From: an uncultured Planctomycetaceae bacterium
GTDB taxonomy: Bacteria; Planctomycetota; Planctomycetia; Isosphaerales; Isosphaeraceae
Assembly: GCA_963833985.1 (NCBI GenBank)
Contig: CAWIAD010000002.1
Location: forward strand, 4,608,001 to 4,672,000
Direction: 5' to 3'
DNA length: 64,000 bases
A program made the position numbers and the translations under genes. The first letter of the stretch is position 1. Every line of letters starts with the position of its first letter. Positions 18,720 through 20,519 of the stretch are shown in pieces. The notes under the pieces were generated by a model that saw only the letters and a list, made by a program, of their open reading frames with translations, was not told the origin of the DNA and did no database searches.

Positions 18720-19004
18720 CTAGCTCGTCAAGGACTCTCGAAAACAATCAGCTCCGCCCGGCCGAGAATGAAATTGAAGGCGTTGAGGGCCATACAGGAC
18801 GATCGAATCGTGCCGCTCGGCCGTGAAAATCCTGACGAAGACGTCATGGACGATATCCTCAGCGTCCTGAATGCTCCCCAGCCGGCGAAACGCGAAACGG
18901 ACGAGCCGATCCGTATAGCCATCGACCATCTCGGCGAACCCGGACGGAGCGTGCGGACCGAAACATGGCGGGTTCTCAGCGGCCGGGAGATGATCACTCC
19001 TCAT
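18720..19004 (-). pseudogene. Truncated ECF sigma factor (region 2 only)
   Basis: FAEMVDGYTDRLVRFAFRRLGSIQDAEDIVHDVFVRIF, followed by unrelated sequence; no region 4. Confidence 0.6.
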
Positions 19005-19180
19005 GAGCCGTCACTCCTCGCTGCGCGTGCCGTCGAGGTGGAATCGATTTGGGCCATTGACGTCTCCCTCTCTGCCTTGACGTCAACGACCGTCGTTTTC
19101 GTCTAAGCAGTTCCGCAAAAGTCTCAGGACAGGATTGCAGTTCGCTTGCCCGAGGCTGAGGGCCAGGTCTGGTCGCTCTC

Positions 19181-19283
19181 CTCGTGGGGTACGATTCCAA
19201 TCGTGCCCTCCCATTCTCGTGGGGTACGATTCCAATCGTGCCCTCCCATTCTCGTGGGGTACGATTCCAATCGTGCCATTTCT
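19181..19283 (+). repeat. Tandem array of three 35-bp REP-like palindromic units
   Basis: CTCGTGGGGTACGATTCCAATCGTGCC(CTCCCATT) at 19181, 19216 and 19251; internal hairpin GTACGATT-CC-AATCGTGC; no unique spacers. Confidence 0.9.
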
Positions 19284-19459
19284 GGTCCATCAGATCGAAG
19301 AAGTGACACGATGTAGAGTCGAGGTGTGGCGCGGTGGGCTCGAGTCGATGGCTCGGCTGGGCCTCGTTTCCACACCCCGCTCATCAAACTGGACGGGCGT
19401 TTTTCCCGCATCCAGCTTTCGGACAAGGCTCGTCTCATCGGTTGAATTCAGACGTTCGC

Positions 19460-19771
19460 TCACGAAACCGACGCGGCTCGGTTCGTTGCTGGGTCGTAGT
19501 TCCGGCCGAGGGTATAACCCAGAAAGTCGAACGTCTCCTCAGGCAGGTGGCACAGCCGCGTCCTGGTCTCGTTCACCGTTCATTTCAGCCTGGACATCAT
19601 CTTCCGCATCACCGTCATGGCCTCTTCGGCCGTGCCGCGACAGCAGATGACGAAGTCGTCCGCATAGTTGACGATTCGCGCGACCAGACGCCGCTCATTT
19701 CCACCAGTCTTCCATCCCTTCACAAATCGCCGCATGTAGATATTGGACAACAATGGTGAGATCGCGCCCCC
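19460..19771 (-). pseudogene. Group II intron reverse transcriptase fragment (RT4-RT7), nonsense codon at 19580-19582
   Basis: ISPLLSNIYMRRF...IVNYADDFVICC...LK*TVNETRT...FDFLGYT; RT0-3 and maturase domain X absent. Confidence 0.85.
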
Positions 19772-20120
19772 AACAATGTTGCGAATGACCTTGTTGGGGG
19801 CCCCCTTCAAAAGGGGAGGGGCTGACCCGGTACACGATACGGACCTCCTGCTCGTCGACCTCGACTTTCCTCACCAGGGCCCGGACGACCTCCCGTCGCG
19901 TGTTCCAGTCCAGCTCTTGCAATCCCTCCGAAACGCGGTTCGCGAACTCCTCCAACTGGCCGATCACCAGCCGGAGTTCCGTCTCCTGCGCGGCTTCGTC
20001 GATCCGCTGCCGACGCTCGTCCTCCAATTTGGCCAGGCGCACTCTCGCCGCCGAAATCCGCGGCTCGAATTCCGACTTGTCGAGCGACCGCTCCTTGTAC
20101 GCATCAGTCCATCTCAGAAT
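19695..20120 (-). pseudogene. C-terminal fragment of a large serine recombinase
   Basis: DAYKERSLDKSEFEPRI, coiled coil, RREVVRALVRKVEVD..VRIVYRV..PF...QHCWGR tail resembling LSR C-termini; catalytic domain missing. Confidence 0.65.
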
Positions 20121-20519
20121 CATCTTTTTCGCATTGATTACCAATTTTCCGAGATGCCGTCGTCAATACCCCGGTGGCCCGCGGGGTTCTGATCGCTTGT
20201 GGACGGCCTATTCCAACCATTTCCCTTTCATCCCCAACGACGGCGGCTTCCCCCTATTCCAGCAAGGTCGGCGACCACACTGGACTTTTCGAGGCCTGCT
20301 CAGCGTCCACTCGCGTTACGGCCTGTCGGTTCGCTGCATCGTCAAGCGACACATCTGTCTCGAAGGCTCCGACGGTTTCGTCTCCTCCACCGCCGCTCCG
20401 ATAGCGACTGGCTGGAGCGACCCAGTTGCCGGGTGGGAGTTACACCCACTGAAGACCAACACCCTTCCACGGCGCACTCGGGCCTTGTCCCACGCGGCCG
20501 GACCCTGTGATGCAGACTT

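Follow-up and report, generated by a model that had tools for sequence, protein, structure and literature searches.

The question raised by this locus is whether a group II intron lying within a short palindromic repeat is there because its guide sequences are matched to that repeat and, if so, whether this holds for one genome only or for a whole intron lineage. The window, i.e. the entire 64,000-nucleotide stretch of DNA that was analysed, had been said in a preliminary description to contain an intron programmed to home into a REP/REPIN repeat family. The reading developed here, which is probably correct, is that the intron belongs to a lineage specialised on the repeats of Y1 transposases, in which a fixed EBS2 is directed at a core shared by such repeats while EBS1 fits whichever repeat is locally abundant.

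The window intron is a group II intron relic of 1165 nt on the minus strand (20477–19313), with termini GTGCG at 20477 and CTAC at 19313, and Rfam model RF02003 matches it at 20451–20311 with 85 bits. As originally stated, the joined exons match the neighbouring repeat without gaps at 22 of 31 positions. It is a dead, older relic of its family, to which it is about 95–96% identical in domain I and in domains V–VI. Reading from its 5' end, domain I extends to nt 329 and is followed by 398 nt of a serine-recombinase element, a fragment of the reverse transcriptase (RT), a second deletion, and then domains V–VI (Table 1); the two internal deletions, the stop in the RT and the recombinase remnant are all damage beyond that recognised earlier. 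The poor pairing of the occupied IBS1, GCCCGA, had been remarked upon, and at 3/6 it is indeed the worst among the 13 copies in this genome (ten pair at 6/6 and two at 4/6); it is also more degraded than 5% drift would predict. The site may have decayed after insertion, or the insertion may have been an old and sloppy one. Chimeric intron ends were also considered as a source of the mismatch and are unsupported, the two exon pieces being the halves of one unit, as in the other copies. A truncated ECF sigma-factor-like ORF lies just downstream of the repeat (window 18720–19004, minus strand).

Table 1 Features of the intron and its target repeat, in window coordinates.
Feature	Position	Strand	Basis
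Three GGGT-type 24-nt units, inverted partners	19184–19207, 19219–19242, 19254–19277	+	Repeat search
27-nt spacer of inverted doublet	19278–19304	.	Between 24-nt units
Conserved flank (about 80 nt) of composite repeat, with cryptic second intron target	19101–19183	+	
Domain I up to first internal deletion (intron nt 1–329)	20149–20477	-	Comparison with intact family; RF02003 inside
EBS2, core GUCC 20285–20282 (GUCCAAUG in other copies), pairs exon -10 to -13 and onward	20278–20285	-	Covariation
True EBS1 UGGAAU, loop of hairpin after GCCGACC	20256–20261	-	Domain I scan and covariation
Second UGGAAU loop, a conserved structural hairpin and no guide	20210–20215	-	Homologue alignment and pairing
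EBS3 (U), pairs exon +1	20166	-	Window position hand-counted from located context
Serine-recombinase element 3' remnant, inserted at RT PQGAP/ISPLL motif	19760–20157	-	81% identity to 2019-nt element
Terminal inverted repeat of serine-recombinase remnant	19782–19760	-	End of remnant
RT remnant, aa 228–327 of intact protein, YADD region, one TGA stop; second deletion then follows	19472–19771	-	
Domain V	19380–19420	-	Fold and position; RF00029 matches intact copy
Domain VI and intron 3' end	19313–19379	-	Sequence position
5' exon, left half of GGAC-type unit; IBS2 intact, IBS1 degenerate	20478–20493	-	
3' exon, right stem arm of that GGAC-type unit	19305–19312	-	

Of the 13 copies in the genome two are intact, eight measure 4009 nt and one measures 5304 nt; the others are the window relic and a split copy, whose two halves lie at contig ends and are counted as one. 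An intact family member (such as that at C2:1391320) is 1994 nt long and encodes a 430-aa RT/maturase without an endonuclease domain, the only recognisable domains being RVT_1 and GIIM and the ORF stopping 23 aa past GIIM. As expected of a group II intron, the intact copy L001 has a ribozyme with domains I–VI, GUGCG...AC ends and an RT/maturase ORF. With two inserts set aside, copies diverge from the intact copy at 2–8 positions, and to judge from such near-identity the family has spread in this genome recently. One copy (L277) contains a 1295-nt DDE insertion sequence (DDE_Tnp_1 and DDE_Tnp_1_assoc, C2 about 2147530–2148825), of which there are two further copies on C1. The genome also encodes a second, unrelated group II-type RT (C2:4725756–4726895, 39% identity). 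The RNA runs available consist of contigs of relatives only (word shares 0.11–0.19); no lariat or spliced junction was seen in them, which speaks neither for nor against activity.

The recombinase element interrupts the RT in nine whole copies and also in the split copy and in the relic of the window; it is 2019 nt long, has inverted ends, encodes a large serine recombinase (Resolvase, Recombinase and Zn-ribbon domains in the intact protein) and cuts the RT at its PQGAP/ISPLL codons. It occurs in both orientations (L276, at C1:2833550–2837558, is an example of such a copy). All seven copies with the element in forward orientation share a SNP in the intron, while both of the two with it in reverse carry the allele of the intact copies. 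This linkage between the orientation of the element and an intron SNP suggests that intron and recombinase element travelled together as a 4-kb composite, the RT being provided in trans, although gene conversion could have produced the same association. Two further copies of the element lie outside any intron (C1:1741773–1743789 and C2:5865419–5867434).

The target unit is 24 nt long, with a GTGG foot, an 8-bp stem and a 4-nt loop, which is the structure of a REP/REPIN. A genome-wide count, as had been proposed, found 154 intact units. The repeat is both multicopy and restricted in its hosts (95 matches against 0 for the control, and present in 2 of 80 family genomes and 0 of 300 others), and it also appears, as doublets, in metagenome contigs. 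It forms inverted doublets and arrays, among them a tandem array of three 35-nt units beside the window intron (19181–19285). The spacer of the doublet is 15 nt, as earlier stated, if the arms are defined as they were then, and 27 nt if measured between 24-nt units. The doublet is itself part of a longer composite repeat, whose flank of about 80 nt holds a near-perfect second intron target used by one copy; the flank in the window (19101–19183) has 32 BLAST matches in the genome. Empty repeat sites lie in stop-free frames of 62–294 codons in DNA of 65% GC, which can serve only as a proxy for an extragenic location, while GC skew in this genome is flat, so that a strand bias relative to replication is unreadable from it.

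The proposal of homing into a multicopy palindromic repeat has held up well, since 12 of the 13 copies split the 24-nt unit at an identical point, immediately after the loop, and the thirteenth, at C2:1011493, interrupts the conserved flank of about 80 nt, where EBS1 and EBS2 both pair perfectly. That this last copy might be an unrelated off-target insertion is ruled out, as the flank belongs to the composite repeat too. Occupancy is sharply divided by subtype: all 12 occupied units are of the GGAC type, of which 43 are intact, as against none occupied and 111 intact among the other units (Fisher p = 7e-7). The three intact units adjoining the window intron, which the preliminary description had used as its model of the target, are certainly present, but all are of the GGGT type and so belong among the non-GGAC units that are never occupied (0/111). 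It is EBS2 that decides which subtype of the repeat the intron uses.

This leads to the placement of the guides. As reported earlier, the hexamer UGGAAU occurs twice in domain I, and as a complement of ATTCC(A/G) it was correctly identified as EBS1; however, the loop chosen for it (20210–20215) was the wrong one of the two. Across homologues the loop at 20261–20256 is hypervariable, whereas that at 20215–20210 stays constant whatever the exon, being conserved in 21 homologues from other genomes; mean exon pairing in these is 5.33/6 for the former and 2.33/6 for the latter. Of 50 loci fetched, 26 had a 5' end that allowed domain I to be aligned, and an unbiased scan of its columns again ranked EBS1 best, with 5.12/6 Watson–Crick pairs, the next best column reaching 2.59. 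Among the 17 distinct hexamers that these 26 loci provide for permutation, the EBS1 loop forms 90 of 102 possible pairs with positions -1 to -6 of its own exon (mean of the permutations 49.6; 0/50000). Seven bases are common to the EBS1 loop (20255–20261) and the conserved downstream hairpin loop (20210–20216); this likeness is probably due to chance, EBS1 here being two changes away from the EBS1 of a relative, although it may have arisen through copying by the RT.

The other two guides behave similarly. EBS2, which starts at nt 193, covaries with exon positions -10 to -13 (47 of 68 pairs, against a permutation mean of 36.1; 1/50000), the alternatives being GUCC with GGAC and GACC with GGTC. 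For EBS3, at nt 314 in the intact copy, 40 loci with a reliable 3' end could be compared, and in 35 of them it is the complement of +1. The comparisons thus fix the guide positions and the targets, and the arrangement, with EBS1–IBS1, EBS2–IBS2 and, at a distance from the EBS1 loop, EBS3–IBS3, is that of subgroup IIB recognition as set out in PMC8643678. Since EBS2 and EBS3 also covary, target choice is, on this comparative evidence, a matter of ordinary EBS base pairing of the IIB type and not of hairpin reading as in class C.

The possibility of recognition by structure, in which a DNA hairpin would be read together with a short EBS1 as in class C introns, deserves mention, given that the target here folds into a hairpin of 8 bp, which the intron enters at the edge of the loop. 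However, it can be given hardly any credence: besides the covariation of EBS2, one copy pairs perfectly through EBS1 and EBS2 at the flank site, which is no hairpin, the GGGT units are competent to form hairpins and are never used, and the targets of homologues share no structure. The junctions of the intron fall within a unit or at sites that are not hairpins, which is likewise not the pattern of subgroup IIC. Pairing, on the other hand, goes a long way. The genome contains 36 sites with a GGAC-nnn-ATTCCR core and EBS2 pairing of 7–8/8, namely 25 intact units, eight occupied units and three sites outside the repeat; with only three of the 36 lying elsewhere, pairing suffices to explain targeting in this genome.

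As to the lineage beyond this genome, 102 loci were examined, from which 26 without a parsable 5' end and 14 duplicates were dropped to leave 62 distinct sites. In the RT tree a branch with 98/98 support divides these into 36 and 26, though as the tree is drawn from its midpoint the 36 rows represent a split rather than a proven clade, and two of them are long branches. The motif GGGGWSAS, with at most one mismatch and starting from -15 or -16, is found at 27 of the 36 sites as opposed to none of the 26 outside the group (background 1.5%), or by genome in 15 of 19 as opposed to 0 of 18; since the sites are concentrated in about 19 related MAGs, the counts are not independent and p-values overstate the case. 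The nine group sites without the motif include one junction of tandem introns. EBS2 reads GWCCAATG in 30 of the 36, yet there are 21 EBS1 hexamers among them, while the 26 sites across the branch carry other EBS2 sequences. Bases of the motif that EBS2 does not pair are conserved as well, GG upstream at 22 of 26 (background 5%) and A at 18 of 26 (background 19%). The unit in the present genome matches GGGGWSAS with one mismatch. The preliminary description would have had homologues flanked by ATTCCA and ATCGTG, and technically it is contradicted on this point, as the introns of relatives are not in this genome's REP; what survives is its claim about the lineage in a broader form, for they lie in other repeat families that share the GGGGWSAS core and are mostly Y1 inverted repeats.

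Several further observations concern the relatives. Three of their introns (L077, L079 and L121) abut the 3' end of another copy in tandem. Outside the group, introns L010, L009/L030/L037/L043/L045, L084 and L122 occur within or next to DNA that is repeat-like or duplicated in tandem, and in one genome (G021) a change in EBS1 is mirrored by the exon; introns beyond the GGGGWSAS group may use repeats as well.

GGGGWSAS is the signature of the inverted repeats that flank TIRYT Y1 transposases (PMC3733652; PMC6006769). When targets were compared with the flanks of Y1 genes (37 loci used, of 165 hits in 10 genomes), 6 of 26 matched at 17–18 of 18 nt, four of the six in the same genome; shuffled controls reached 13–16 of 18 nt, and the other 20 targets, this genome's included, are within that range. 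For some families only, the targets flank a class-2 Y1 gene (L033, L073, L105, L099, L044 and L119, together with L004 and L007), the label of subclass 2.1 having been assigned by eye from motifs rather than with the original authors' profiles. Intron L004 is in the upstream repeat directly before the Y1 gene, and L007 is in a repeat opposite an array upstream of its Y1 gene, the repeat being a TIR in both cases; several copies of the target families lie 80–100 nt upstream of Y1 hits. The same sequence comparisons establish the role of several of these families as TIRs, and the multicopy status of five of them in the intron's host relative to reversed-pattern controls (target counts and controls being 154/10, 153/9, 80/0, 41/1, 33/0, 18/0, 14/0, 14/1 and 10/0). 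No hairpin geometry is common to the homologue targets.

In the present genome a cognate transposase was sought and not found: none of its seven Y1 genes is flanked by the repeat, no Y1 gene lies beside the repeat at 60 loci elsewhere (57 metagenome and three relative loci), and a search of 80 family and 300 phylum genomes yielded none. Because no Y1 transposase flanked by the repeat was found, the target is filed here as REP-like. Y1 transposases with repeat arrays of their own lie at C2:3098982, C2:2427284, C1:1082471, C2:1566525, C1:530064 and C2:1859932, and the repeat at C1:1082471 is a 24-nt hairpin with a geometry like that of the intron target, unused by the intron.

It must be remembered that a fit of EBS1 to its own site is to be expected of any homing intron, and by itself is no sign of adaptation. 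One might accordingly suppose that the ribonucleoprotein simply has a fixed preference, made up of EBS2 and protein contacts for GG at -15/-14, and that repeats are merely the commonest good matches to it, with no specialisation at the level of the lineage. That pairing alone nearly predicts the targets here, with just three unrelated sites among the 36, and that homologue targets lack a common hairpin geometry, both fit this supposition; it leaves unexplained, however, why so many different EBS1 hexamers should each fit a multicopy family, and GG cannot be a requirement, since the flank-site copy carries TT at -15/-14. It is considered unlikely, if still deserving of attention, and it differs from the preferred explanation chiefly in whether survivorship is to be called specialisation.

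On that preferred explanation, specialisation on Y1 repeats, the intron would move by retrohoming with standard IIB pairing: EBS1 with -1 to -6, EBS2 with -10 to -13 and beyond, and EBS3 with +1. EBS2 would stay as G(A/U)CCAAUG, gripping the GG(A/T)C core of GGGGWSAS in the repeats of the TIRYT/RAYT world, while EBS1 would change quickly to match the variable downstream bases of the repeat family of each host; here the guide pair would fit the GGAC subtype of the GTGG-footed hairpin repeat, giving 13 copies. The excised intron would presumably reverse-splice into the repeat through its EBS pairing. Lacking an endonuclease, it would probably do so into single-stranded DNA and borrow a primer from replication, most likely at forks; the fork primer is our assumption by analogy with other endonuclease-lacking (En-minus) introns. 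The lineage may survive because repeats offer it many sites at low cost, which would make them the safe harbour of the preliminary description, to the benefit of host or intron. A route of insertion into single strands is described in PMC7306698.

Some more intimate connection with Y1 activity can also be imagined. The intron might exploit the single strand that the transposase exposes, it might be primed from a 3'-OH left by nicking of the inverted partner, or it might ride on mobilisation of the repeat. Such a coupling would suit an intron without an endonuclease domain whose targets across hosts are Y1-associated repeats and which, at 11 of the 12 hairpin-site copies here, has an inverted partner 35–76 nt downstream; but the repeat normally occurs as doublets, and the recent spread in this genome took place with no cognate Y1 found, so that the idea appears decidedly improbable. 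Somewhat less so, while still quite doubtful, is that the intron is a true parasite of the Y1 repeat system, anchoring on a motif the transposase needs, retuning EBS1, and priming on single strands or nicks that the transposase makes, with its recombinase cargo as a third nested level. Were this true, the target could not easily escape, the motif being needed by the transposase.

The mechanism itself is ordinary EBS–IBS pairing, and what is added is a likely specialised niche for group II introns, namely the short repeats of RAYT/TIRYT transposases, which one guide would reach as a conserved anchor and the other by changing fast. Niches of other group II introns are terminators, attC sites, start/stop codons and IS genes. 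The 21 natural EBS1 variants that accompany a single EBS2 supply rules of targeting for an En-minus class that has been little studied, which could be useful for planctomycete targetrons, and are also a natural record of how guides track their targets.

Among known introns, this one presumably belongs with class F or g2–g4, judging by resemblance of the RT N-terminus; its protein is endonuclease-free, as in class F, while its YADD motif argues against g2, which has FADD. Plasmid hits to the intron carried no class labels. The En-minus IIB-like introns So.us.I2, Ge.ur.I1 and Pe.th.I2 are like it in having RT and maturase domains only, YADD, about 430 aa, a length of 1.9–2.0 kb and EBS1/2/3; they are given as lying in "putative non-coding sequence", with no repeat targeting stated in the available text (Toro & Martinez-Abarca 2013, PMC3552965). 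Class C (IIC) introns, which follow terminators or attC sites, likewise have landing sites that are non-coding, often palindromic and multicopy, but they are without EBS2 and read an upstream hairpin (PMC8643678), whereas the present intron possesses EBS2 and interrupts the unit itself. In P. putida KT2440, two of nine intron copies are associated with REPs, and the insertion sequences ISPa11, ISPpu9, ISPpu10 and ISPsy8 target REPs (Tobes & Pareja 2006, PMC1525189); these insert with the same near-exclusiveness into one REP family, although as DNA transposases rather than as an RNA-guided retroelement.

Another parallel is an En-minus intron that proliferates, likewise by EBS pairing, through a multicopy mobile-element target, namely RmInt1 of Sinorhizobium meliloti, which reportedly homes into ISRm2011-2; there the site is in the coding region of an IS, while here it is a short non-coding repeat end, and many repeat families are reached through one core motif. 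Hiding in mobile elements is regarded as a general intron strategy (Waldern et al. 2020, PMC7306698). TIRtrons and TIRYT repeats carry GGGGWSAS, occur as dimers and clusters and flank Y1 genes (Di Nocera 2013, PMC3733652; Quentin 2018, PMC6006769, subclass 2.1). The homologue targets fit this description of TIRYT TIRs, whereas in this genome the target is a hairpin with a GTGG foot, which departs from the motif at one base and has no known transposase. In the available text of the former paper the word "intron" is absent, and in that of the latter it occurs twice, about IStron only; a search of the literature, to which most subscription papers did not belong, gave no account of introns targeting TIRYT/RAYT repeats. 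Introns that hide in mobile DNA and insertion sequences that target REPs are, then, already known; an intron lineage anchored on TIRYT repeats is apparently new.
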